Notes under the pieces: model-generated
The model's database searches: none
Told to the model about the DNA's origin: nothing
The model's input: only the letters and a program-made list of their open reading frames with translations
NCBI GenBank assembly: GCA_016700095.1
Contig: CP065002.1
Location: forward strand, 28,074 to 92,073
Source of the DNA: Candidatus Woesebacteria bacterium
Lineage (GTDB): Bacteria > Patescibacteriota > Microgenomatia > UBA8517
Reading direction: 5' to 3'
DNA length: 64,000 nt
In this document: positions 3,387-56,762 of the stretch, piece by piece
How positions within the stretch are numbered: position 1 is the stretch's first letter
How the letters are laid out: every line of letters starts with the position of its first letter
Translations under genes and position numbers: made by a program

Positions 3387-4550
3387 TCACCAGTTATGTG
3401 TTAAATTACAATTCTCATTTATTTGACAATCTGCCCATGTATGAACTTCATTCCAAACAAATTTACCATCCTCGGTAATGATACGTGGTGTAAATACATA
3501 TAGATTATCGTAATCAGGACTAATTTGAGGGTTAATCAATAGATCTTCCGGAATTACATTTGTCGACATATCATCTTGTGCTTCGTATATTCGTCGTGCC
3601 AATATTGCAAGTGCACTTGGATCCAGGGTGGTCTGCGTGTGGTATGTGACTATGTCGATAAGTGAACGAATTTTTTTTGGTGACAGCAATATTTCTTTGC
3701 TTAATACCTTTTCTTCTATGCTTTTTATTATCGCTTGTTGACGTAGACTGCGTGCAAAATCAGTACCCTCATCTCCATCGGCATTTCTTGAGCGTACATA
3801 CTTGAGAGCTAAGGCGCCATCCATGTGTTTAACACCCTTTTCAAAGACGATGGTTTCATACCTGCACATTAAACTTACGTCTCCGTTACAATCGTCGTTC
3901 TCCCTACCTTTTATCGGATATTTGTTGTCAACAAAAGCATTTTTGACATCAACCTCTATTCCACCAATTTCATCGATTATTTTTTCAAACACCGTGAAAT
4001 CAACAACCACGCTATAATGAACCGGTTGCCCCAATACCTCTTCTACAGCCGACTCGGCTAGTACAATTCCTCCGCCGGCTTGTTTTTTGTTTCCCCAATA
4101 GTAAGCACTATTTAACTTAGCTCTTAACTCAGGTATCCAAATATCTCTTGGTAGTGATATCATAACAATTTTTGATCGAGTGTGGTTCACGGAGACAAAC
4201 ATCATCGTGTCAGTCAGCTCCGGCGCTTCATGACCTTCACCACCTTTCCCTAAAATCAATATGTTTGTTTTGGAGTCATTGCTTTGCATCTTTTCGACTG
4301 GAGCAAATATAAAATCGGACGCTAATGACAAATAAAAGTCGGCCCCTGTCGTTTTTAAAATTAATCCTATAAATAAAACGACCAGATATACTAGCGCTAT
4401 AAATCCAAGAACAAGTGACGTCCTGATAACCCAAACATGCTTAAAAAGCTTTCTTTTTAGTTTAATAATAAACCTGTTTTTTCTTTTGGTTTGTTTACCA
4501 AGTGGCAACGGTGTCTTGTCAATTGTTTGGCTATGCGGTGTGTTGTCCAT
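3387..4550 (-). CDS. LytR-CpsA-Psr (LCP) family cell-envelope polymer transferase
   Basis: A single N-terminal TM is followed by ILILGKGGEGHEAPELTDTMMFVSVNHTRSKIVMISLPRDIWIP, the LCP-family core. Confidence 0.75.
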   Translation of the reverse strand: MDNTPHSQTIDKTPLPLGKQTKRKNRFIIKLKRKLFKHVWVIRTSLVLGFIALVYLVVLFIGLILKTTGADFYLSLASDFIFAPVEKMQSNDSKTNILILGKGGEGHEAPELTDTMMFVSVNHTRSKIVMISLPRDIWIPELRAKLNSAYYWGNKKQAGGGIVLAESAVEEVLGQPVHYSVVVDFTVFEKIIDEIGGIEVDVKNAFVDNKYPIKGRENDDCNGDVSLMCRYETIVFEKGVKHMDGALALKYVRSRNADGDEGTDFARSLRQQAIIKSIEEKVLSKEILLSPKKIRSLIDIVTYHTQTTLDPSALAILARRIYEAQDDMSTNVIPEDLLINPQISPDYDNLYVFTPRIITEDGKFVWNEVHTWADCQINENCNLTHNW

Positions 4551-4619
4551 GTTAGAATAATAAACACTTGCGGAAGTGCTCTTTGTATTAAGTCGCTACT
4601 AATTGTAAAGTGTAAAGCG

Positions 4620-6476
4620 ATGGCAAACAAGTTACTTGAAAATTTAAATACCAAACAACAAGAGGCGGTTGTATTTAGCGGCGGACCTTTACTTATTTTG
4701 GCTGGTGCAGGTAGTGGTAAAACACGAGTATTGACTCATCGAGCAGCATGGTTTGTAGAAAATAAAATTGCCAAACCGCAAAATATTTTACTGCTTACTT
4801 TTACCAACAAAGCAGCAGGTGAAATGAAAGACAGAATAGACAAGCTTACAAACAATGCCCCTTCTTTCGCGGGTACTTTTCATTCATTTTGCGTGCGACT
4901 ACTGCGCACCGACGGTGTAAAGATCGGCATACCCTCGCAATTTATCATCTACGATGAAACCGACCGCAAAGACGCAATTCGAGAAGTTCTTGACAAATTG
5001 GACATCTCCGACGATTCATACAAGCCAGCTTCAATTGCGCATCAGATTTCCGATGCCAAGAGCCAAATGTTAACACCCCTTGCTTACTCCGAGATAGTAA
5101 GAGGTGAATTCCAGGAAGTTGTTTTTAAGGTGTACTTGGAATATGAAAAAATGCTTAAAGAAATCGGAGCATTGGATTTTGACGATTTGTTGTTAAACGG
5201 AGTACGGCTTCTCAAGGAAGATCTGCCGACAAGGGACAAATGGCAAAAACAATTGACTCACATTCTAGTTGATGAATGGCAAGACACCAATAAAATTCAA
5301 TACAATCTCACCAAACTTCTTGTCGGAAAGGGAAATAATATAACTGCAGTTGGAGACGCCAGCCAATCTATCTATTCCTGGCGCGGAGCCGATTACAAAA
5401 ATATTAATTATTTAATGGATGATTATCCGGGCATAAAAGTAATCAACCTTGAGAGAAACTACCGATCAACCGAAAACATATTAAGCGCAGCTAATTCGAT
5501 TATTAAAAAAAATCAGAGCCATCCAGTTTTGGAACTTTGGACTGAAAAAGGAAAGGGTGAAAAAATTAAATTGTATAGAGCAGGAAACGGTTTGGATGAG
5601 GCACAGTTTGTTGTCGACGAAATCCAAAAACTGACTAAACTAAACAAACAAAGTACATTAAGTGATTATGCAATTTTGTATAGAACAAATGCGCAATCAC
5701 GCGTACTCGAGGAAGCTCTTCTACATGCAGGCGTACCATATACCCTAGTGGGGGGAACAAATTTCTATGATCGCCGTGAAGTCAAAGACATTATCGGATA
5801 TTTGAGACTGTTAATAAACGACAAGGACACGGTCTCTCGAAAAAGAATCGAAAAATTGGGTAAAAATCGCCTCAAGAGTTTTGACAATTTCACAAGCAGT
5901 ATAGCAAAAAAAATTACTTCACTAACGACCATTGAAATTATGGATGGATTAATCGCAAGTATAAACTATCTTGAGAAGTTTAAAAGAGATTCGGAGGAGA
6001 ATCTCCAAAGACTGGAGAATATCAAAGAGTTGCGAAGTGTAGCTAGTGAATTTCCAGTTCTTTCGGATTTTCTGGAAAACGTAAGCCTGGTTGAAGCTGA
6101 ACAAAAAAGTAAAAACACAATCGACTCAATACTGGGTGAGGCTGAAGGCAGGGTTACACTTATGACCCTGCATGCCGCCAAGGGTCTAGAATATCCGGTT
6201 GTTTTTATGGTCGGCATGGAAGAAGGGCTCTTTCCTCATTCCAGAAGCTTGTGGGATATAAACGAATTGGAAGAAGAACGAAGACTTGCCTATGTGGGTA
6301 TAACACGTGCCATGAACACTCTTTACCTTACCTTTGCAAACCGCAGGCTTTACTTTGGCCTAAGAACTTCAAATCCTCCGTCCAGATTTATTATTGACAT
6401 TCCCGAAGAGTTAATTGAAAGCTCAGTGGACACATCTTTCATTGACAGATCCTTTGATCCATCGCAAAACTTCTAA
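4620..6476 (+). CDS. pcrA: ATP-dependent DNA helicase, UvrD/PcrA family (short form)
   Basis: From MANKLLENLNTKQQEAVVFSGGPLLILAGAGSGKTRVLTHRAAW (Walker A, motif I), UvrD motifs continue through VDEWQDTN (motif II) and the YRS/GG motifs. The 43-codon N-terminal extension in the ORF track is not protein-like. Confidence 0.8.
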   Translation: MANKLLENLNTKQQEAVVFSGGPLLILAGAGSGKTRVLTHRAAWFVENKIAKPQNILLLTFTNKAAGEMKDRIDKLTNNAPSFAGTFHSFCVRLLRTDGVKIGIPSQFIIYDETDRKDAIREVLDKLDISDDSYKPASIAHQISDAKSQMLTPLAYSEIVRGEFQEVVFKVYLEYEKMLKEIGALDFDDLLLNGVRLLKEDLPTRDKWQKQLTHILVDEWQDTNKIQYNLTKLLVGKGNNITAVGDASQSIYSWRGADYKNINYLMDDYPGIKVINLERNYRSTENILSAANSIIKKNQSHPVLELWTEKGKGEKIKLYRAGNGLDEAQFVVDEIQKLTKLNKQSTLSDYAILYRTNAQSRVLEEALLHAGVPYTLVGGTNFYDRREVKDIIGYLRLLINDKDTVSRKRIEKLGKNRLKSFDNFTSSIAKKITSLTTIEIMDGLIASINYLEKFKRDSEENLQRLENIKELRSVASEFPVLSDFLENVSLVEAEQKSKNTIDSILGEAEGRVTLMTLHAAKGLEYPVVFMVGMEEGLFPHSRSLWDINELEEERRLAYVGITRAMNTLYLTFANRRLYFGLRTSNPPSRFIIDIPEELIESSVDTSFIDRSFDPSQNF

Positions 6477-6755: not shown

Positions 6756-7715
6756 ATGACCCCAAACAAATCAGAAATAAACAAAGTCGCTACTCACCCT
6801 TTGCAATCGTGGGAATGGGGGGAGTTTAGAAAAGAGTGGGGCAACGAGGTTGTCAGGCTTCCTTTTGGTCAGCTAATGCTACATAAAATTCCAAAAACAA
6901 ATTACAAAGTTGCTACCTTTATCAAAGGTCCTAAACCAAACCAGTCTCAGTTAGACACACTTAAAAAAATCGCCAAGGAAAACAATTATATATTTATTAA
7001 GCTTGAACCAAATATCAGGCATAACAAAAATAGCGAAATATTGTTAAAAAAATCAAACGCCAGACAGGGCAAGACGCTTTTTACTCCCACCACCTTCTGG
7101 ATAGATTTAACAAGAAATGAAGACGATGTAATGAAATCATTTGAATCTAAGACTCGCTACAATATTCGTCTTGCTCAAAAAAACGGCGTAGAAGTTGTTG
7201 AGGATAACTCCGGCAAGGCTTTTGAGAAATATCTTAAATTAACAAAAGAAACGGTAGAACGTCAAAAGTTTTATGCTCATTCAGAAAAATATCACAGACT
7301 CATGTGGGAACATTTACACACCTCAATGTCCGTTAACCCAATAGCAAGACTATTAACAGCCAAATACCGAGGAGAAATCATAACAACGTGGATCGTTTTT
7401 GTTTGGAAAGATTTTCTTTATTATCCGTACGGAGCGTCGACCTTCAAGCACAAAAATATCATGGCCAACAATCTCATGATGTGGGAAGCAATAAGGTATG
7501 GACAAAAAAACAACTTAAAAACTTTTGATCTTTGGGGGCGAGAGCCCGGTAAGGGGTTTACAAAGTTCAAGGAAGGTTATAAGCCCGAAATTGTTAGATT
7601 TATTGGCACATGGGACCTCGTTACCAGCAAACTTTATTCCACCTATAAACTCATCGATCAGACTAGGTGGTTTTTTCTTAGAAATAAAGCCAAGATCTCC
7701 AGGCCTACTTTTTAA
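6756..7715 (+). CDS. FemAB-family peptidyltransferase-like protein (peptidoglycan interpeptide bridge formation)
   Basis: The size and the C-terminal LYYPYGASTFKHKNIMANNLMMWEAIRYGQKNNLKTFDLWG resemble the FemX/FemAB (GNAT-fold) signature YxYAGS...YY. Confidence 0.55.
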   Translation: MTPNKSEINKVATHPLQSWEWGEFRKEWGNEVVRLPFGQLMLHKIPKTNYKVATFIKGPKPNQSQLDTLKKIAKENNYIFIKLEPNIRHNKNSEILLKKSNARQGKTLFTPTTFWIDLTRNEDDVMKSFESKTRYNIRLAQKNGVEVVEDNSGKAFEKYLKLTKETVERQKFYAHSEKYHRLMWEHLHTSMSVNPIARLLTAKYRGEIITTWIVFVWKDFLYYPYGASTFKHKNIMANNLMMWEAIRYGQKNNLKTFDLWGREPGKGFTKFKEGYKPEIVRFIGTWDLVTSKLYSTYKLIDQTRWFFLRNKAKISRPTF

Positions 7716-8208
7716 TATTGCAATTACCAACCCTAATCAAAATAGAAGGGGAGAGGTCAGTGGTAATTAGGATAGCTGCTTAAAATTTAAAAAGGAAAAT
7801 AATTTCTTAGTGCAACTTAAGTTGGCATATTAATTATTGTATTAATGTTAAATAAGTCGAAACACAAGTTTCACAAACAAAGATTGTTAATTGTTTTCAC
7901 GATATGTATATATTATTCTTTCACGCGATGCGTTTATTGTTGCCCGAGTTATCCACAAACATCAAATAATATATACGTCGCACAATAATTGTGTTGATAT
8001 AGTTAGATATATCCTATAATTAAGTAACTGAATTAATCAACCACAGGAACTTGAAACAGTAATACCGGTGTCACATTATTTTTCAAAGCTTTCCCCTCTT
8101 CCCCACCTCCGGCATGGTCCACTTTGTCACCCGTTTCCACACACTAAAGAATCAGTGTAAGCTTATTACGTCGTACAATATTAATTTAATATAATCTCTG
8201 GGGACTTT

Positions 8209-11112
8209 TTACTTATCCGATAAACAAAAATTGCTGAATTCACAATCTTTCTGGCAAATATAACTATGAGAACAAGAAAAATCCGAATTTTCGATATCTT
8301 CTCTTATCCTGAATATCTTGTTTTCAAAATCACTTAGCTGATCCGCACCTCTTACAGACGTTATCATGCTTTGGTTTTCAAAGTAATACAGGCAAAGTAT
8401 GATTTTTTCTGCCGTGACATTAAACGGTGGTTCTTTTATTTTACTTGCGGCCAGTGCATAAAAAGTCAACTGGTCGTTTTTGTCTACTTCGCGTTGACTT
8501 GGTACGTCTTCGCTTGTTTTATAATCAACAATTCGCAAAACACCTTGCGGTAATCTATCAATTCTGTCGATTTTCCCGCCAATTTTTAGACTTCTCCCCT
8601 TGTGTTTTGGATCTGTCAGATTAACCAGAAAAGAATGCTCAACGGCAATCGGCAAACTCTGTTTACGAAAGCTTTTTAACACATAGTCTTGTATGTATGC
8701 CCTACCCTTCTTTCTATATAAATCTTCGTGTATTTTGTGGGTAAATCCTTCGCTGACCCAGTTTTTTTCAAGAAATTCTTGAGCAAGTTTATCGGTAACA
8801 TTTACACCATTTACCGCATGTTTATAGATATCGTTTAGCGTCTGATGAATCGCAACACCAAAGGAAATCGGGGCAGTTTTCGGAGTTGGAACATTTAATA
8901 AATATTTCAGCTTGTAATGCAAAGGGCATATTTCGAAGGTTTGAATCTGCGAATAGGACAAATAATCAATGTGGAGTTTTTCATTTACCTGCTCCACCTT
9001 GCGGTCGTCGGTTTTTTTGTAATCGGCAAACGATAATTGAACGGAGTTTTCCACCTCACTACGGATAGCTTCGTCTCCAAGTGTCTCAAAGATAAACGGA
9101 GATAGTCTTTTGGTGCGTTTTCCCTCTCCATAATAATCCGCCGCTGTTAAATAGAGTTTTTCTTGTGCTCTTGTTACTCCCACGTAACAAAGCCGTCTTT
9201 CTTCTTGAAGATGGTGATCACCCGAGGATACAACTTCCTTAATAAGCCCATCCGGAATTGGAATCTGGTCTTTCCTGTCGGATGTCGGGAATCGTTGTGA
9301 TACTAAATTTACCAAAAAGACACATGGAAATTCCAATCCCTTGCTTGAATGTATTGTTAGTATGTTTACAGCATTGTTGTTTATCCAATCAATTTCTGCG
9401 GCAGCAGGCGATTCACCCTCCTCAATCATTAAGTCAATCCACTCGACAACACTTTGAACATTAGCGTTTTCTGTTTTTGTTTCAAAGTTTTTCAGCTTAT
9501 CGAAAAATTTAGAGATGTTTTTCGTAATCTTCTCAACATCCGGTGTATCTGGGTCGAGAAGTCTTTTTAACATTCCGGTTTCATCTAACAATGTATAAAC
9601 CAAACTACCCGCTGTACTTTTTTCACTTAATTCAATATGGCGCTGAAGTAACTTGTAAATTTTTGTTATTCCAGATTTACCTTTGGTAATACTTATATCT
9701 CGTAGGTCATCTTCCAAAACCTCAAAAAGTGATTTGTTTTTCTTTCTGGCGTAGCTTGTTATTTTTTTCAAGTCTCTGACATTAATTGCAAAATAGTCGG
9801 AAGCAATAAGCCTAAAAAGTGACAAGGAATCATCGGGGTCATTTACTACTTTTAAGTACGCAATTATTTCTTGAATTTCTTTTTGCAAGAAAAGCTTCCC
9901 CGGTCCTAAAAACTGATAGGGAATATTTTTTCTTGCCAACGCGTTTATAAAACTACTGGCATGATCATTTGCGCGAACGAGAATTGCAACATCGTTATAT
10001 TGATAGTCATCCCTAGTCATTCTAAATATTTCATCAGCAACTACTCGCGCCTCGTTTTCGGCGTTTGCTTCGTGAATGAACTTTACTTCCCCCTTACCGG
10101 CAATTTTTGATATCAGTTTCTTGTTTATTTTTTCAACTACTTCCAATCGGTCGGGGTTGTTGAATTGAATTAGATTGTAAGCATTATCCAATATTTCTTG
10201 CCTTGATCTGTAATTATTAATTAAGGTAATTGTTTTTACTTTTGGAAAACTGTTCCTGAACTGGATTGCGTTTGATACCGCCGCTCCTCGAAATCTATAA
10301 ATCGACTGATCATCGTCAAGAACTACTGTTATATTTTCGTCGTCGTTTGCTAACATCTTTACCAATTCGTTTTGGGCAATATTGGTATCTTGATATTCAT
10401 CAACTAAAATATATGAAAATTTCTTTTGGTAATTCATGAGGATATTTGGACGTACTCTGAATAATTTCAAGGTATTGGTTATTAAATCACCGAAGTCCAT
10501 TTTTCCTTCATGTATTTTTAGATCGCAGTACTTTTTGTAAGCATTTGAAAGCTCGTTCCACTTTTTTACTTCGATTTGTTCATCTTCGGTATGTTTTTTG
10601 TTGTCGTTACTTTTAACCCAATCGCAATATTGATCAGCTGTAACGTCCTCGTCTTGAAGACGACTAAAATGCTGACACAAACCTTTAATAAATTTGTTTG
10701 GATTTCCGAGTGGGCGGTAATACTTAAAATCAAAATCGTAAAGATGTTTGGTTATAAAACGCATCGTTTCCGAAGTTGTCATAAGATCATACGACGTAGT
10801 AAGCCCAATCGCTAACGCTTCCTGGCGAAGTATGCGGTCACAGAACGAATGAAAGGTAGAAATCCACATTTGTGAATAACCCAACGAAAGGGCAACATCA
10901 ATCCTCTCCTCCATTTCACTTGCTGCTTTTTCGGTAAACGTAAGGGCAAGAATGTCGGATGGATTGATACCACGATTCATAATTAAGTATTTAATTCTCT
11001 CGACAATCACAGTGGTTTTCCCAGTACCTGCACCCGCAACCACCATAAGTGGACCTTTGTTGTGCTTAACACACTTAAGCTGTTCGTTATTTAGTTTTTG
11101 GTAAGTGTCCAT
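8209..11112 (-). CDS. UvrD-like helicase fused to a C-terminal RecB-family PD-(D/E)xK nuclease domain with a Cys cluster (AddAB/AdnAB-like helicase-nuclease)
   Basis: The N-terminus carries VVAGAGTGKTTV (Walker A) and VDEYQDTN. The C-terminal ~250 aa has IDRIDRL...IVDYKT (RecB nuclease motifs II/III) and the terminal CSHSYICQKDCEFSNFC (C-x5-C-x3-C-x5-C), preceded by an upstream Cys (FEICPLHY). This arrangement resembles Cas4/AddB Fe-S nuclease domains. Confidence 0.8.
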   Translation of the reverse strand: MDTYQKLNNEQLKCVKHNKGPLMVVAGAGTGKTTVIVERIKYLIMNRGINPSDILALTFTEKAASEMEERIDVALSLGYSQMWISTFHSFCDRILRQEALAIGLTTSYDLMTTSETMRFITKHLYDFDFKYYRPLGNPNKFIKGLCQHFSRLQDEDVTADQYCDWVKSNDNKKHTEDEQIEVKKWNELSNAYKKYCDLKIHEGKMDFGDLITNTLKLFRVRPNILMNYQKKFSYILVDEYQDTNIAQNELVKMLANDDENITVVLDDDQSIYRFRGAAVSNAIQFRNSFPKVKTITLINNYRSRQEILDNAYNLIQFNNPDRLEVVEKINKKLISKIAGKGEVKFIHEANAENEARVVADEIFRMTRDDYQYNDVAILVRANDHASSFINALARKNIPYQFLGPGKLFLQKEIQEIIAYLKVVNDPDDSLSLFRLIASDYFAINVRDLKKITSYARKKNKSLFEVLEDDLRDISITKGKSGITKIYKLLQRHIELSEKSTAGSLVYTLLDETGMLKRLLDPDTPDVEKITKNISKFFDKLKNFETKTENANVQSVVEWIDLMIEEGESPAAAEIDWINNNAVNILTIHSSKGLEFPCVFLVNLVSQRFPTSDRKDQIPIPDGLIKEVVSSGDHHLQEERRLCYVGVTRAQEKLYLTAADYYGEGKRTKRLSPFIFETLGDEAIRSEVENSVQLSFADYKKTDDRKVEQVNEKLHIDYLSYSQIQTFEICPLHYKLKYLLNVPTPKTAPISFGVAIHQTLNDIYKHAVNGVNVTDKLAQEFLEKNWVSEGFTHKIHEDLYRKKGRAYIQDYVLKSFRKQSLPIAVEHSFLVNLTDPKHKGRSLKIGGKIDRIDRLPQGVLRIVDYKTSEDVPSQREVDKNDQLTFYALAASKIKEPPFNVTAEKIILCLYYFENQSMITSVRGADQLSDFENKIFRIREDIENSDFSCSHSYICQKDCEFSNFCLSDK

Positions 11113-11169
11113 AAATTAGTGTTAGAATAACACAATTTCTTGATACGGGTTATAAGTGAGGTATAAAAT

Positions 11170-12183
11170 TTACGGTTTCTTTTGTTCTAACAGCTTATTC
11201 TTGTCATCGTCTACACTTAACTCTTTAGTGTTTGAGATTTTTTGCCCTAATTGCGCATAGCCTGTCAAAACATTACCCATCATCGCATGGGCGTTATTCA
11301 CATGTTTTTGTAAAGTAAACAAATTCTCGTCGACTTTATAATAGTCTTTCTGGATTGCTCGTAGCATTGCAAACACTTCTCTAGCTTTATTTTCAATTTT
11401 TTGGCCTTCAAACGACAGAAGCAGAGTTTGTAAGTGGGCATACAAAGTTGTCGGAGAAACGGGATACACCCTCGCCAGCTGAGCATCGGACATTAAACCA
11501 ACATCATTTACCATTTCATAATAAACAGCCTCCGAAGGAATATACATAAGGGCAAAATCCATTGTTCCTTCTTCAGGTAATATATATTTTCTGGAGATAT
11601 CGCCAATGTGTTTTTTTATATCTTTCCTGAATAATTTAGTATATGCCTCACGCTCTGTTGCCTTTACTGCCGAAGCCAGTTTTGCAAAGTTCTCCATTGG
11701 AAACTTAGAATCGATTGGCAGTATTCCGGCACTGGTTTTAATTGCCGCGTCGACTTTCTCCCCTGATTTGAAAGTGTATTGCAGAGAAAATGTCGACTTT
11801 GGAAACATTTGACCAATCAAATCTTTCAGAACTTGCTCGCCAATATTACCTCTTAGTTTTGGGCTCGCAAGAAATTGCTGCAATTCTTTAATTCCGCGAC
11901 CTATCTCACTCATCTCACCAAGATTTCGTTGCACTTCTCCAATTACTTTGGCTGCGTTGTCTAATCTCAAATTAAAATTATTTGACGAATCGCGGATGGA
12001 TTCGGAAAATTGTTTGCTCTGTAAATCAAGGCGTACATTTGTCGTTTTGAGATATTCAAGGAGGTCACCTGATAATTTCTGGGTTTCTTTAAGATTGGAA
12101 AATCTAATATTAAGATAAATGCCAATAACGACAAAACCAATCACTCCGATAATTAATATCAACGCTACTGCAGCAAAATCCAT
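11170..12183 (-). CDS. rmuC: DNA recombination protein RmuC homolog
   Basis: An N-terminal TM helix, a long coiled-coil segment and a C-terminal RmuC-like domain are present. It lies immediately upstream of, and co-directional with, the helicase-nuclease gene. Confidence 0.6.
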   Translation of the reverse strand: MDFAAVALILIIGVIGFVVIGIYLNIRFSNLKETQKLSGDLLEYLKTTNVRLDLQSKQFSESIRDSSNNFNLRLDNAAKVIGEVQRNLGEMSEIGRGIKELQQFLASPKLRGNIGEQVLKDLIGQMFPKSTFSLQYTFKSGEKVDAAIKTSAGILPIDSKFPMENFAKLASAVKATEREAYTKLFRKDIKKHIGDISRKYILPEEGTMDFALMYIPSEAVYYEMVNDVGLMSDAQLARVYPVSPTTLYAHLQTLLLSFEGQKIENKAREVFAMLRAIQKDYYKVDENLFTLQKHVNNAHAMMGNVLTGYAQLGQKISNTKELSVDDDKNKLLEQKKP

Positions 12184-42752: not shown

Positions 42753-43415
42753 TTATTTCTTTTCTTCCGAAGATTCTGTAACAGTTTCACCTTTTGCTTT
42801 ATCGTCAACGGCTTCTTTAACTTCTCCTTCTACGGCTTCGACAACAACCTCCGGCTCTTCTTCTCTGAGAGCTTCTACCTTGGCGATAATCAAATCATCG
42901 TCAGCTAAAATCTCTACTTTTTTATCCGTCCTCAAATCGGCAATCGAAACAGAACTTTCAACTTCCGTTAGTTTTGAGACATCTACTTCGAATTTGTCGG
43001 GTAAATCAGCAGGTAGTGCTTCTACTTCAACTTCGTCAACGTGCTGAACCAATGTTCCCAGACCGGATTTGTCGGCCGGTGATTCCCCTACTAATTCTAC
43101 CGGCACGTGTGCGGTTACTTTTTCTGTCAAATTAACTTGGAAAAAATCGGCATGAAGAAGTTCACCGGTAACAGGATCAACCTGAACATCATGAACAAGA
43201 ACGGGTTTTTTTGTGCTTCCCACTTCTAATTCGATCAGTCCGGTCTCCCCCACTTTTTTATAAACATCCGCAAACTCCTTTGTTGCAATCTGGATGGATA
43301 GAGATTTTACTTTTTTCCCAAAAACATTTGCGGGTAAAATTCCCTCTCTTCTTAGTTTTTTTACCTTTCTTCCAACGATTTCCCTGTTTTGTGCTTTTAG
43401 TATTTGCTTAGTCAT
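42753..43415 (-). CDS. rplY: Ribosomal protein L25/general stress protein Ctc with acidic C-terminal extension
   Basis: MTKQILKAQNREIVGRKVKKLRREGILPANVFGKK... (L25 N-domain), then a beta-barrel domain and a Glu/Val-rich tail. Confidence 0.75.
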   Translation of the reverse strand: MTKQILKAQNREIVGRKVKKLRREGILPANVFGKKVKSLSIQIATKEFADVYKKVGETGLIELEVGSTKKPVLVHDVQVDPVTGELLHADFFQVNLTEKVTAHVPVELVGESPADKSGLGTLVQHVDEVEVEALPADLPDKFEVDVSKLTEVESSVSIADLRTDKKVEILADDDLIIAKVEALREEEPEVVVEAVEGEVKEAVDDKAKGETVTESSEEKK

Positions 43416-46302
43416 ATTTCAGATTTACCTTAAGATTAATATCTTTGTCTAAGGTGGTATTATATCCGTATAGTCCCTCATTGGTCAAGCGAAAAATATT
43501 CGTTGGAAATATTGTTAATCTCTCGGGTGTTTTTATACTAACCGACAAGGGTACATTTTTCATCCCGGATTGTTTAATAAATCGAATATCATATTCCCCG
43601 TCTCTCGTCAGATCTAGCACCGACGTTGTTTCCCAATTAATTAGATATCGTTCCGTTTGGCCTGGCATAATTTCTATAATAAAACCAGCGGTCTTGCCTT
43701 CTTTCTCTACAGAGATATCCGGTTTAACCAAAACGGTTCCACTCTCGTTTGTACGGTAAATGTCTTCAAAGCCACTTTCTTTGTTAACCAATATTTTTAC
43801 ATAAGCTTGATAGGGTTGGGAATTGTCTTTCGGATTTGTAAATACATATTGCATCGAGTGTTTTACAATTCCCTCTTCTATGTAAACCGTAAGATTTATT
43901 TCTCGTTTAATTGATTGAGCATTGGCGTTTACGCTCGAGTCAAAAACACCGATCTCGTCAGAAAAGCAATTAAAACTACATTTTTGGGAATTCTTGTTTC
44001 CAAACAAATTTGCTGATTGCAATTTGTTGTTGAAATTGTCATCTGTTGTCATAAGCTGAATATTTTTATTATTACTTCCTTCAAATACTAATCCATAAAT
44101 TGATAATTTTTGATTCTCGTCTAATTCCACAAGTGTTTCAAAAATTCTTTTTATATATTCTTTTACCAATTTGGGGTCTTGTTGTTTCTCGGCGACCGCT
44201 GTGTGTAAATCGGAAGTACTTAACTCGTCGTTGAAAACTTTCTTATACTCATTTGCCATGTTTTCTTCTAGTCTATTAATAATTTCCTGATTTAAAACCA
44301 CAACTCCATCTACCTCAATATCAACCGATTTTGATATAAACCACTTAAGCTGTTCTGCAGAGTTTATGTAATTTACGTGCCAACCAAAATCCTTCGACGA
44401 CCACTTATCAGTATTTAGACCCGATAACAAATTTGCGGGAGGTATGATTTCTCCCTTAATTTGTTTATCTAAAAATTCAGGTGTATAAACATATATATCT
44501 GCCAGTTTTCCTTCACTAAAAACTATAATTGCAATATAGTTAGCTATTCCACCCGAAGGGCGGATTACATTCTCATCTTGGAATACAAGGGCATAACTCT
44601 TGGTCTTGTCTTCACCCAACATGTTCGGCAGGTCTGCTGAAATTTGTTGTATAAAATATGCAAGCGATTTCGTTCGAGAAATATCAACTGAAGATATTAT
44701 GTTGAGAATCACTTTTTTATTGTTCCCTGAAAGTGCTTTAATTTGTCCTTCCAAAAATCCCAATTCTTCTACCAACGATTTATTAACAAGCAGTATCGAG
44801 CTAGTGATATCTTCAACACTTCCATCAACACCAAAAGCATTGTCAACTAACACGTTGGTCGCACTTAACGAAACAACAATTTTTTCTTCAACTGTTGACA
44901 CCCTCAAAAGTACCAACGTTAAAGCATGAAGGTCGCCAAAAATACTACCTATGTGGGGAGTTGTCGATAATATAAATATGTAGTTTTCGGTTAATGCAAC
45001 AACTCTGTTTGATACACCAACTGTTGTACGGGCGGTTTTCAAATCATACGACAACAATCTGTTTTTATTGAAACTTACTAAAAATATTGACGTGGTAATA
45101 AGAAATAACGGCACTATAAAATATCCCAACACCGCAAAAAACACTACATACAAAACTGGTTTCTTAACCCTCTTTTTAATAACTAAATAATACTTTTTTA
45201 GCGCTAGTAAAACTTTTCTTGATTGCTTTTTGTCGTTTATAGCCGGGGTTAATGAGTGAACAATTTTACTACCTTTGTTGGAAGTTTGTTGGTCAATTAT
45301 TTTGTTGGATTCTATTTCGTTAGTATTTCTATTAACTACTTTTGACGAGTCTTGTTCATTTGAATAAAGTGGTGTATGTTGAGGTGGTACTAAATCTTTT
45401 TGGGTACTTCTATTTACCAAAGTGTCGTTTGGGTTGGATGATGTTTTTTCGGCATCATCATTGTGTGTAACAACTACTGCTTTGTAGCGATGAGTATTTG
45501 CATTTTCTTTTTCGCTTTTAACGCGGATCAGATATTCCTCAAGAAACGACATTAGTACGTTTTTGTCAAATTGAACAAAAGCTTTTTCTTCTACAAAAGC
45601 ATCTTCAAAACTTATATTAATAGAATCATTCCGACTTGTTAAATTCTTGTTTACCGTTTGTTGAAATTCATTAGCATAATTAACATGTGATATTACTGCA
45701 TGCTTAGTACTTTCACTCATAAACGAAAAAATCGATCGTTCAACGTGATAGAGTGCGTCGGCTATTCCGATTGGTAAAAATTTCCAGTTGTTAATACAAG
45801 GTAAGTCTTCTTCAAAATATAACTTCTCGGCTACTGTATTTTTTACAAACCCTTTCTTTAGTTCAACCACGTCACCAAGATACAAAGCTCGGTATTTCGG
45901 TTTGTCTAAATTTATTTTTAGTAACAAATTGTTGTTATCTATGTGTTTCTCTTTTGACGCTATATAGGAAAAAACAAATACCTTTTTTAAGTCTTGATGT
46001 TTAATAACCAGTTGCGCCAAATCCGATAATTTAACGCGAGACGTATTACCAAATTGTTCAAGGTCGATATAAATAAAATAGTCATATTTGTCTTGATATG
46101 AAAATTTTTCAATGTCCATTAAACGCCAGCCGTCAAATTTGGTTTCATCAACAATGATATTCCACAGATCGATGTTGTCTGTTACAACGTCTACTTCACA
46201 CGATAGATCAACAAATCTCTTGACAATGTTTAATGACAAGTAGTTGAATTTCGTAATTACGAGCGCCCGCGGTTTGGTCGTTTTAGTTTGTTGGTTGTCC
46301 AT
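43408..46302 (-). CDS. Large hypothetical membrane protein (964 aa; cytoplasmic N-domain, single central TM, large extracytoplasmic C-domain)
   Basis: An intact 2.9-kb ORF with a central hydrophobic helix (YVVFFAVLGYFIVPLFLITTSIFLVSF). It overlaps the rplY start by 8 nt. Confidence 0.5.
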   Translation of the reverse strand: MDNQQTKTTKPRALVITKFNYLSLNIVKRFVDLSCEVDVVTDNIDLWNIIVDETKFDGWRLMDIEKFSYQDKYDYFIYIDLEQFGNTSRVKLSDLAQLVIKHQDLKKVFVFSYIASKEKHIDNNNLLLKINLDKPKYRALYLGDVVELKKGFVKNTVAEKLYFEEDLPCINNWKFLPIGIADALYHVERSIFSFMSESTKHAVISHVNYANEFQQTVNKNLTSRNDSINISFEDAFVEEKAFVQFDKNVLMSFLEEYLIRVKSEKENANTHRYKAVVVTHNDDAEKTSSNPNDTLVNRSTQKDLVPPQHTPLYSNEQDSSKVVNRNTNEIESNKIIDQQTSNKGSKIVHSLTPAINDKKQSRKVLLALKKYYLVIKKRVKKPVLYVVFFAVLGYFIVPLFLITTSIFLVSFNKNRLLSYDLKTARTTVGVSNRVVALTENYIFILSTTPHIGSIFGDLHALTLVLLRVSTVEEKIVVSLSATNVLVDNAFGVDGSVEDITSSILLVNKSLVEELGFLEGQIKALSGNNKKVILNIISSVDISRTKSLAYFIQQISADLPNMLGEDKTKSYALVFQDENVIRPSGGIANYIAIIVFSEGKLADIYVYTPEFLDKQIKGEIIPPANLLSGLNTDKWSSKDFGWHVNYINSAEQLKWFISKSVDIEVDGVVVLNQEIINRLEENMANEYKKVFNDELSTSDLHTAVAEKQQDPKLVKEYIKRIFETLVELDENQKLSIYGLVFEGSNNKNIQLMTTDDNFNNKLQSANLFGNKNSQKCSFNCFSDEIGVFDSSVNANAQSIKREINLTVYIEEGIVKHSMQYVFTNPKDNSQPYQAYVKILVNKESGFEDIYRTNESGTVLVKPDISVEKEGKTAGFIIEIMPGQTERYLINWETTSVLDLTRDGEYDIRFIKQSGMKNVPLSVSIKTPERLTIFPTNIFRLTNEGLYGYNTTLDKDINLKVNLKYD

Positions 46303-54758: not shown

Positions 54759-56762
54759 TTATTTTATAATATTTGTACCGACATCTGTTTGCCTGATTGC
54801 ATTGATCGTACTTGGTGACGGTATCTGATTATTTTGTTTTATAACTGTATTTTTTTGTTTTTGCAAAATCTCTCTTGGATTAGTTGTGATTAAGCCGTGT
54901 TCTTCAGGTGATGCAACAATACGGATTGGAACATGGTGATTGCCGGCAAAAAATATTCCTTCTCCGATGTTTGCTCCAAGCAGTAACTGCCTCTCTCCCT
55001 GAGATAAATAGAACACATCACCAATGCGGTCGATTGCGGCAGGAGACTGCTTGAGGAGAATTCTAAGGGCACTGTTTGTAACAATAGCTTTACCAATATC
55101 TTGTGCCAAAAAATCCTCCACGTCTTGAGTGATTGTCGTTAATCCAAGATAGTACTTTCTCGCTCTTTTTACGATCGACCATAGGAATTGTGCACTGTCT
55201 TCGTACCTCATCATATGCCATGCTTCGTCGACAATTAGAATACGTTTTCTCATATCTCTTTTTACTTTGGTCCAAATAAAATCAAGAATAATAAACATGG
55301 CAATCGGTCTTAATTCGTCCCGTAATTCACGGACACCAAAAACCGTAAACGGGTTGTTGATTTCAATGTTGGTGTGTTGGTCAAAAATTCCAACATAACT
55401 TCCTTTAACAAATTTTTCGATACGCGCAGCCAGGTCGAGTGCGGTTTCGACTTCCATGCCGATTAACGCCTTGTAAAGATCTTCCATCAGCGGAGGTTCT
55501 TTCTTTTGAGTTTCTGGGTCTTGGGTGATTCCCTTGGCTTTGTAAGTTGCAACAAGAGCTCGGTCGAGCATGGCGTCTTGTTGGGCGTTTAAGCTTCCCA
55601 TAATAATTTTAAAGAGTGAGTGCAATGACAAAATCTTTAGGCCCAAATTATTTTCACCCTCCTCGTAAATCTGTGACAAATCAAATGGATTAATTCTTTG
55701 CGGTGAGCTGAAAGAGAAATCAATATACTGTCCATCAACAGCATCGGCGAGTACTTTGTATTCGGATTCGGGATCAACAGCGATGATTTCAACACCAAGC
55801 ATGAGTGATCGCACGGATTCCAATTTTACAAAATAGCTTTTTCCTGCTCCGGAAGTCGCAAACACTGTCATGTTGTGATTTTCCAAAGAGAATCTGTCAA
55901 AAATAATGAAAGAGTCATTCTGGGGATTAATACCATACAATATTCCGCTGTCACTGGTTAGTTCTGTGGACGTAAGAGGGAAAGTAGTAGCAAGGGAGGT
56001 AGTATCCATGTTTCTGGTGATATTTAACCTATCAAGTCCAAGAGGAGAAGTTGACAAAAATCCGTTGTTCATATCAAGTGTTGCATTTCTTGGAATAGCA
56101 AGCAGTGACTGAAGAGTGGATGCAACCTGTCTTGTTACGAAATTTAATTGTTCAATATCTGCTGCTCTAATTGTTATATAAAATCCAAATTCAAAAAAAT
56201 GTTCAACCCCTTTTACAAGAGACTCTTGTAACATCCGGGCGTCATCCAACTTTGCCTGTGTTGAAGGGTTGACAATTTTACCGCGTTCCAAATCGGTTAT
56301 GATTTCGGCTTCCATTTCGGCGATTTTGTGTCTGAAATCTTCAAGAATACCTTTTATTTCAACCGGATAGACAAAAAAGGCAATATCTAATGAAGCGTTA
56401 AAATTAATAATTTGCTCTAACCATCCAGGTGAAACATAGCGTGGGTAACCTGCAATAAATAGCGTGCGAAAATAGACATTGTTAATTCTAAGATGGTTAA
56501 AATCAACCTCTATTTCTTGAGGGGCAACCACATCGAGGACATTTGCATCCTTGTCGAGAATTTCGGATATCGGATCGCGGAACTTTGGTTTTACAAATTC
56601 GTCGCGAGTTATTCCTCCTTCTTTGTTTGATTTGGATGTTTTATCTTGGATTTGATTAACCAACTTCTGTTGCGGAGTTTTTCCGTCTGTTTCGGGAGTG
56701 GGATCAACAACATTGTGCACCTCCGTCTCTTTCTGAGTATTTTTTTTACCAAACAGTTTCAT
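54759..56762 (-). CDS. VirB4/TrbE/CagE-family T4SS ATPase (ATPase portion)
   Basis: It has NVYFRTLFIAGYPRYVSPGWL (the conjugative VirB4 GYPR region), the Walker A FATSGAGKSYF, DPESEY and the Walker B ILIVDEAWHMM. Confidence 0.75.
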   Translation of the reverse strand: MKLFGKKNTQKETEVHNVVDPTPETDGKTPQQKLVNQIQDKTSKSNKEGGITRDEFVKPKFRDPISEILDKDANVLDVVAPQEIEVDFNHLRINNVYFRTLFIAGYPRYVSPGWLEQIINFNASLDIAFFVYPVEIKGILEDFRHKIAEMEAEIITDLERGKIVNPSTQAKLDDARMLQESLVKGVEHFFEFGFYITIRAADIEQLNFVTRQVASTLQSLLAIPRNATLDMNNGFLSTSPLGLDRLNITRNMDTTSLATTFPLTSTELTSDSGILYGINPQNDSFIIFDRFSLENHNMTVFATSGAGKSYFVKLESVRSLMLGVEIIAVDPESEYKVLADAVDGQYIDFSFSSPQRINPFDLSQIYEEGENNLGLKILSLHSLFKIIMGSLNAQQDAMLDRALVATYKAKGITQDPETQKKEPPLMEDLYKALIGMEVETALDLAARIEKFVKGSYVGIFDQHTNIEINNPFTVFGVRELRDELRPIAMFIILDFIWTKVKRDMRKRILIVDEAWHMMRYEDSAQFLWSIVKRARKYYLGLTTITQDVEDFLAQDIGKAIVTNSALRILLKQSPAAIDRIGDVFYLSQGERQLLLGANIGEGIFFAGNHHVPIRIVASPEEHGLITTNPREILQKQKNTVIKQNNQIPSPSTINAIRQTDVGTNIIK

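Follow-up and report, generated by a model that had tools for sequence, protein, structure and literature searches.

A helicase-nuclease gene beside an RmuC gene

We analyzed a stretch of 64,000 nucleotides (nt) from the genome of a Candidatus Woesebacteria bacterium (contig CP065002.1, positions 28,074 to 92,073; referred to here as the window), in which a gene of the RmuC family lies next to a gene for a 967-residue protein that fuses a UvrD-type helicase to a PD-(D/E)xK nuclease with a putative iron-sulfur (Fe-S) site. We use the name HelNuc for this helicase-nuclease, which is 100% identical to the NCBI protein 'UvrD-helicase domain-containing protein [Candidatus Woesebacteria bacterium]'. 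Woesebacteria belong to the Microgenomates, within the Candidate Phyla Radiation (CPR, or Patescibacteria). The main features of the two genes, all on the minus strand, are as follows.

8209..11112, minus: HelNuc gene, encoding the 967-amino-acid (aa) UvrD-type helicase/Fe-S PD-(D/E)xK nuclease fusion (open reading frame list, translation, Pfam)
8209-8211, minus: HelNuc stop codon
9139..11094, minus: motor core of helicase superfamily 1A (SF1A), aa 7-658 (Pfam UvrD-helicase and UvrD_C)
8212..8976, minus: PDDEXK_1 nuclease domain (Cas4/AdnA/AddB-like), aa 713-967 (Pfam PF12705)
8926..8928, minus: codon for C729, putative N-terminal Fe-S ligand, in the motif ...TFEICPLHY... (invariant in alignments)
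8272..8274, minus: codon for C947, the fifth cysteine, six residues N-terminal of the triad
8224..8256, minus: codons for C953, C957, and C963, the C-terminal Cx3Cx5C triad of the putative four-Cys site
11113..11169, minus: spacer of 57 nt between RmuC and HelNuc (sequence)
11170..12183, minus: RmuC-family gene, 337 aa (Pfam PF02646)

A preliminary description of this DNA had reported a single 967-aa chain with a UvrD motor and a C-terminal PD-(D/E)xK domain, and an RmuC gene directly upstream in the same orientation. Both open reading frames were found where it had placed them, Pfam agreed with the domain assignments, and the linkage of the two genes across the short spacer proved to be strongly conserved in related loci. 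Because the Pfam E values are very low, we regard this observation as real and beyond chance. A consensus scan of the spacer found neither a terminator-like nor a coding-strand promoter-like site, and the short distance together with the empty scan makes it plausible that RmuC and HelNuc are co-transcribed.

Motor half of HelNuc

In the N-terminal part of HelNuc, Pfam identified UvrD-helicase (PF00580) at aa 7-290, with an E value of 1.4e-76, followed by UvrD_C (PF13361) at aa 295-658, with an E value of 1e-52. The SF1A motifs are present along its length, with the Q motif at Q11, Walker A (GAGTGKT) at residues 27-33, motif II (DEYQD) at 238-242, motif III (DDDQSIYRFRGA) at 266-277, motif V (HSSKGLEF) at 588-595, and motif VI (VGVTRA) at 644-649. 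The motif residues are invariant or almost so, both among 30 close homologues (~55% identity) and among 62 wider homologues. The closest solved structure to the motor is that of PcrA (1pjr; E 2.8e-97, 31-32% identity), with AdnB (E 3.6e-39) and AddA (E 1e-28) behind it, and PcrA/UvrD also ranked first in Foldseek when the full-length model was used. Judged from these motifs and matches, HelNuc looks to have a catalytically competent SF1A motor of the PcrA/UvrD type. PcrA, UvrD, and Rep are thus the closest relatives of the motor but have no nuclease, whereas HelNuc carries an additional nuclease domain of 255 aa. HelNuc also scored below the NCBIfam equivalog cut-offs for pcrA (473 versus 911 bits) and uvrD (368 versus 1144 bits), and the Rep model failed as well. 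The full-length AlphaFold2 model was poor (predicted local distance difference test [pLDDT] score of 70.8 and predicted template modeling [pTM] score of 0.41, with residues 591-710 below 50 in pLDDT).

Nuclease domain and putative iron-sulfur site

At the C terminus of HelNuc, aa 718-963 matched PDDEXK_1 (PF12705) with an E value of 2.3e-34 and 119.9 bits against a cut-off of 22, in the profile search that had been named beforehand as the test of the PD-(D/E)xK assignment. The catalytic residues E825, D849, D863, K865, Q881, and Y885 are intact, and none of them varies in 62 relatives; the 30 close homologues likewise keep E825, D849, D863-Y-K865, and Q881-x3-Y885. For residues 700-967, AlphaFold2 gave a model with a pLDDT of 90.3 and a pTM of 0.86, and when it was compared with PDB structures by Foldseek, the leading matches by query TM score (TMq) were AdnA (7sjr_A, 0.72), ACE1, a Cas4-family nuclease associated with Argonaute (9iab/9iac, 0.70), and AddB (4ceh_B, 0.66), with the nucleases of Cas4, RecE, AddA, RecB, AdnB, and Dna2 matching less well. 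AdnA was the best sequence match for this domain too. As modeled, the nuclease fold is therefore closest to the Fe4S4-bearing nucleases AdnA, ACE1, and AddB. Against the Cas4 model TIGR00372, HelNuc scored 20 bits, with a cut-off of 65, and the Pfam annotations of the surrounding genes, out to about 10 kb, include no cas genes.

The cysteines of HelNuc are C729, followed by C947-x5-C953-x3-C957-x5-C963. Across the 62 relatives, the most distant of them at ~30% identity, no substitutions occur at C729, C953, or C957, and conservation of C963 reaches at least 90%; the triad is spaced Cx3Cx5C in HelNuc and Cx2Cx5C in most relatives. All five cysteines are kept in the 30 close homologues (~55% identity), but C947 occurs only in the Microgenomates-type subfamily, and distant homologues mostly have P or A at this position and, once each, R or T. 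The preliminary description had proposed a five-Cys arrangement of the AddB/Cas4 type, of which the four family-wide cysteines stand, whereas the fifth belongs to one subfamily. C947 is perhaps an alternative ligand or a redox-sensitive residue.

In a profile search, the HelNuc triad lined up with the CxxCx5C motif of CtACE1 (9iab), an Fe4S4 nuclease. Direct sequence alignment of the Cys ligands was also tried with AdnA, where the local alignments ended at profile position 191, and with AddB, where the match was not significant; because only the ACE1 9iab alignment reached the C-terminal triad, we used the fold search described above instead. ACE1 binds its Fe4S4 cluster through one plus three cysteines (PMC12094033), and in AdnA, AddB, and ACE1 alike these are one N-terminal and three C-terminal residues (PMC13000450, PMC12094033). 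C729, C953, C957, and C963 correspond to this canonical 1+3 pattern, and the conservation of the ligands together with the similarity in fold suggests that HelNuc probably binds such a cluster.

Conserved linkage to RmuC

The upstream gene matched the RmuC family (PF02646) with an E value of 1.3e-50 and 172.6 bits against a cut-off of 26. Its product has an N-terminal hydrophobic helix at about aa 5-26 and a PD-(D/E)xK core formed by D145 and D158-S-K160. Of 103 RmuC genes that neighbor HelNuc homologues, 100 encode an N-terminal hydrophobic segment, and conservation of D145, D158, and K160 is 97% or higher. An RmuC domain, an N-terminal membrane helix, and a PD-(D/E)xK core are also what E. 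coli RmuC and ShdA of the Shield system possess. E. coli RmuC is longer (475 aa versus 337 aa here), and the equivalog model built for it gave the upstream protein 25 bits, below the cut-off of 810; unlike ShdA, the RmuC gene described here lies outside any defense island. E. coli RmuC (YigN) has a membrane anchor and has been tied to recombination and the SOS response, and in Vibrio cholerae RmuC is a gene of the SOS regulon (PMC5963079).

We counted linkage in the 72 GTDB loci that had enough upstream sequence. In 66 of these, RmuC precedes HelNuc on the same strand, and in 26 of the 72 the gap between the two genes is -49 to +72 nt. When both flanks were considered, in the 76 loci with at least 4 kb on each side, RmuC was found in the flanks of 66, a FemAB-like gene in 62, and a PcrA-type helicase gene in 58. 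At 36-40% HelNuc identity, RmuC is present in five of the six loci that have flanks of 4 kb or more on each side; a looser count gave 11 of 12, a figure biased by admitting any locus where RmuC was found. Three arrangements occur at this distance, in which RmuC precedes HelNuc on the same strand, follows it on that strand (L091, L092, and L097), or follows it on the opposite strand (L089). In the rearranged loci, FemAB and PcrA are gone but RmuC has been retained. In one further lineage, RmuC lies 5.9 kb downstream of the HelNuc homologue. We read the association of RmuC with HelNuc as a genuine functional one on top of a deeply conserved synteny block, with the case for its specificity coming from the few rearranged loci. 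Neither a link between RmuC and a helicase nor a conserved pairing of RmuC with a helicase-nuclease was found in the literature searched, and the pairing with HelNuc appears to be unreported.

Four genes that at first seemed to be inserted between RmuC and HelNuc turned out to be the intein-bearing N termini of HelNuc itself. An intein of ~364 aa (Cys1 at its start, His-Asn at its end, followed by Ser+1) splits helicase motif III, between DDDQ and SIYRFRGA, in 4 of 80 GTDB orthologues (L003, L036, L039, and L057), each of which is a single open reading frame of 1,341-1,402 aa (for example, L057 4017-8039). An intein may also account for some family members of 1,170-1,330 aa.

The membrane anchor of RmuC bears on one alternative, in which RmuC and HelNuc form a module for DNA scavenging or uptake that degrades imported DNA, either for nucleotide salvage or during natural transformation, in reduced, auxotrophic CPR cells. 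The anchor is conserved, Patescibacteria have been reported to be naturally competent by way of ComEC and pili (PMC12455944), the RmuC-domain protein ShdA lowers transformation efficiency, and pilin-like genes occur occasionally between or beside the two genes (L031 and L086). These points are purely circumstantial, though: neither comEC nor other uptake genes are conserved in the block, and an anchor is also found in E. coli RmuC with its ties to recombination and SOS. We consider a role in uptake very improbable.

Comparison with known helicase-nucleases and search for a partner subunit

Fusions of a Cas4-like nuclease to a UvrD-like helicase were described by Hudaiberdiev et al. in 2017 as the largest branch of pfam12705, with a UvrD motor that is apparently active and with both halves monophyletic (PMC5704561), so that the fusion itself is not new. 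HelNuc shares with these proteins the N-terminal UvrD SF1 helicase, the C-terminal PDDEXK_1 domain with its catalytic motifs, the four cysteines, and the lack of a second subunit. On the basis of its domains, catalytic residues, and four cysteines, its sequence places it as a member of the UvrD-Cas4-like (pfam12705) fusions. It differs from them as described in the fifth conserved Cys of its subfamily and in its surroundings, for the published fusions stand alone or beside type III restriction-modification (R-M) or Dcm/Vsr genes, and a defense or ancillary role was suggested for them, whereas HelNuc lies in a housekeeping block with RmuC as its neighbor; the 2017 study makes no mention of an RmuC neighbor (PMC5704561). 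No experiments on UvrD-Cas4-like fusions were found in the literature searched. The architecture itself is thus catalogued, and what is added here is the context, the pairing with RmuC, the extra Cys, and a proposal for mechanism.

The bacterial machines for double-strand-break resection characterized so far, RecBCD, AddAB, and AdnAB, all have multiple subunits. AdnA of mycobacterial AdnAB (6ppj, 6ppr, and 7sjr) resembles HelNuc in that its single chain runs from a UvrD-like domain into an Fe-S nuclease, but its motor-like domain does not translocate and it is an obligate heterodimer with AdnB, encoded by the adjacent gene, while the motor of HelNuc is intact and PcrA-like. At the fork, the nuclease of AdnA threads the 5' strand and cuts it (PMC13000450), and AdnA and AddB both cut the unwound 5' strand (PMC13000450, PMC12094033). 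AddB (3u44 and 4ceh) likewise carries an Fe4S4 'iron staple' nuclease of the same fold at the C terminus of a helicase-like chain, but it needs AddA; its helicase domain is inactivated and serves in Chi recognition (PMC3321194). In AddAB and AdnAB, then, the subunit whose motor is degenerate carries the Fe-S nuclease and the active motor subunit a cluster-less one, whereas HelNuc has an intact motor and the 1+3 cysteines together. It joins on a single chain an active motor, in the role of AdnB or AddA, and a fork-facing Fe-S nuclease like that of AdnA or AddB. The preliminary description had called this an Fe-S arrangement moved onto the helicase subunit, which is apt in that the motor looks competent here, but AdnA and AddB, both helicase-like chains, already carry the cluster (PMC13000450, PMC12094033).

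Eukaryotic Dna2 also has an Fe-S PD-(D/E)xK nuclease and an active SF1 helicase on one chain. Its domain order is the reverse of that in HelNuc, and its helicase is SF1B (5'->3') rather than SF1A. In Foldseek, the nuclease fold of Dna2 (5eax/5eaw) was detectably similar but much weaker as a match (TMq ~0.5).

The genes addAB and adnAB are operonic pairs, and HelNuc differs from them in having no adjacent paralogous gene. In the 64-kb window, no other open reading frame matches the nuclease profile, and only one, a PcrA-type helicase gene, matches the motor; in 166 related loci, no second nuclease-domain gene was found within about 8 kb. The statement in the preliminary description that no AddA/RecB/RecC-type partner is adjacent thus holds for partners of the nuclease-bearing kind, in the window and in the 166 loci, although the PcrA-type helicase gene was absent from its account. 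A 964-aa open reading frame at 43408-46302 on the minus strand was considered as a partner and rejected, as its only match, to DUF4012, is weak and falls under the Pfam gathering score, and it resembles neither helicases nor nucleases. Two neighboring genes are relevant here.

4491..6476, plus: PcrA/UvrD-type helicase gene without a nuclease domain, an open reading frame of 661 aa (called as 618 aa; Pfam, gene call)
6756-7715: FemAB-like gene, between the PcrA-type gene and HelNuc

These data bear on whether HelNuc could be one subunit of a heteromeric, AddAB/AdnAB-like machine whose partner is encoded elsewhere in the genome or is the nearby 661-aa PcrA-type helicase. Every bacterial helicase-nuclease characterized in resection is a heteromer, the usual place of an Fe-S nuclease with this fold is the non-motor subunit, as in AdnA and AddB, and the PcrA-type helicase is syntenic in 58 of the 76 loci. 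Against this, HelNuc, in contrast to AdnA and AddB, has a full set of intact motor motifs, a second gene of the PDDEXK_1 type is lacking in the regions just given, and HelNuc falls far below the NCBIfam cut-offs for AddA and AddB (addA_Gpos, 207 versus 708 bits; addB_alphas, 29 versus 487) and also below that for recB (160 versus 696). The PcrA-type gene, moreover, is convergent with HelNuc at a distance of 1.7 kb, with FemAB between them, and it is missing from the rearranged loci that keep RmuC. A heteromeric machine therefore seems to us quite unlikely.

Distribution and genomic context

A profile of the nuclease domain was searched against 1.84 billion representative proteins (a 50%-identity library) and matched 586 clusters at an E value of at most 1e-30 and 4,468 at an E value of at most 1e-10. 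Most of the full-length matches are 900-1,070 aa long with the nuclease domain at the C terminus, and homologues with the same architecture as HelNuc number in the thousands. In GTDB, the gene is found in at least 171 species representatives; it is widespread in Microgenomates, and the carriers named include Woesebacteria, Levybacteria, Gottesmanbacteria, Chisholmbacteria, and other Patescibacteria. Another 80 loci came from a scan of metagenomes that used more distant nuclease domains as seeds; the named members of this seed group are Peregrinibacteria and Gracilibacteria. No relatives of HelNuc were found in the viral-contig collection.

The genes near HelNuc encode a class I aminoacyl-tRNA synthetase, a protein of the Trp repressor family, the FemAB-like protein, LytR, and glycosyltransferases, and LeuRS, L25, and GroEL are encoded elsewhere in the window. 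GC content is flat, and the composition is native. No GajA, reverse transcriptase, R-M, Dcm, or Vsr genes were found adjacent to HelNuc. PADLOC returned only generic UvrD/GajB matches and a weak match to an RmuC domain, with cognate partners absent. The 'RTasHel' and 'RTasRmuC' models were considered as parts of one known system, but they belong to different UG reverse-transcriptase groups. PADLOC v2.0.0 gave no ShdA match, although this version may predate Shield; the context of HelNuc is not a defense island.

The preliminary description had offered two functions, a minimal end-resection enzyme and a defense-related helicase-nuclease. In the second, HelNuc, with or without RmuC, would degrade invading phage or plasmid DNA. 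The UvrD-Cas4 fusions have been linked to defense contexts with type III R-M or Dcm/Vsr genes (PMC5704561), ShdA is a membrane-bound RmuC-domain effector of Shield that degrades DNA and blocks both phage and transformation, and the PADLOC models for GajB, which is of the UvrD type, and for a reverse-transcriptase-associated RmuC do give matches. These matches reflect generic domain similarity, however, and the cognate partners are not adjacent. Defense genes are normally patchy and located in islands, whereas HelNuc belongs to a deeply conserved housekeeping block of native composition shared by at least 171 species, was not found in the viral contigs, and contains an intein in some orthologues. 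With a housekeeping block, no viral copies, and no defense island, we favor housekeeping repair or resection and consider the defense function unlikely.

A proposed role in DNA-end processing

On balance, we think that HelNuc is probably an enzyme that is inherited vertically and, together with RmuC, processes DNA ends in recombinational repair. In the mechanism we propose, the motor would load at a DNA end or gap, translocate 3'->5' on one strand, and unwind the duplex, while the Fe-S nuclease at the fork would thread and cut single-stranded DNA, most likely the displaced 5' strand, by analogy with AdnA and AddB. Cutting of the 5' strand would leave a 3' tail for RecA, and a cluster at the four-Cys site would staple the nuclease fold of HelNuc. 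The membrane-anchored PD-(D/E)xK nuclease RmuC would act in the same pathway, and it might start the process by cutting aberrant or secondary-structure DNA, after which HelNuc would process the resulting end. This scheme includes points that we infer, namely, cluster binding, the polarity of the cut strand, the oligomeric state, co-transcription, and the division of labor with RmuC.

Several observations weigh against this role. Hudaiberdiev et al. favored a defense or ancillary role for the UvrD-Cas4 fusions (PMC5704561). The search for a partner in the source genome covered the 64-kb window of a 1.27-Mb genome, so a partner or a canonical AddAB or RecBCD may lie elsewhere; the literature searched for the AddAB/RecBCD content of CPR yielded nothing relevant. 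As modeled, full-length HelNuc is too weakly predicted to position the nuclease relative to the motor. With regard to RmuC, variable small genes on either strand lie between it and HelNuc in 40 of the 72 loci, and a strict operon is therefore not universal. Since FemAB and PcrA are nearly as syntenic as RmuC, part of the linkage may be inherited block synteny, and specific selection is argued by only about four rearranged loci (L089, L091, L092, and L097) plus L086. Homologues in Omnitrophota and in a 4-Mb genome have no adjacent RmuC. Finally, recA, which we had considered as a conserved neighbor, is rarely close (6 of 76 loci) and was rejected as such. Two lineages of distant homologues do have recA no more than 5 kb away (L085 1517-8970 and L082 8001-16642), one with the same-strand array recA-recX-rny-ymdB-HU-helicase-nuclease and the other with cinA-ligT-recA-topA downstream.

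We tentatively extend the proposal to suggest that RmuC and HelNuc might be an unrecognized, vertically inherited two-gene module that replaces RecBCD, AddAB, or AdnAB, and perhaps SbcCD, in CPR, in which hairpins or aberrant DNA would be cut by RmuC and the end resected by HelNuc acting as a single chain or a homodimer. If this were so, HelNuc would be a minimal, possibly ancestral-like resection machine on a single polypeptide, its homodimer would resemble a symmetrical ancestor of the AddAB and AdnAB heterodimers, and repair in the very large, uncultured CPR would likely proceed through HelNuc. RmuC, the role of which has been unclear since 2000, would gain a defined biochemical partner; the pairing already offers a concrete candidate partner for a nuclease of undefined cellular role. 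A housekeeping use of the UvrD-Cas4 architecture would also be set apart from the defense role proposed for it.

Other observations

Three proteins of 1,047-1,297 aa (P0121, P0124, and P0126) were top or near-top matches to the nuclease profile, with the domain internal and in four to six matched stretches; they have no helicase motifs at the aligned positions and represent a different architecture. Loci L004, L005, L008, L009, and many more carry titles of 'uncultured Gammaproteobacteria bacterium', yet they contain a Woesebacteria-like RmuC/HelNuc/FemAB/PcrA block at ~55% identity, and these submitter labels look wrong. Between the convergent FemAB-like and HelNuc genes lie 493 nt (7716-8208) with no open reading frame of at least 50 aa and no Rfam match, a gap that is long for a compact CPR genome. 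At 54759-56762 on the minus strand is a gene for a TraG/VirD4-like P-loop ATPase (PF19044, E 6.5e-29), which suggests a gene of the type IV secretion or conjugation-like kind.

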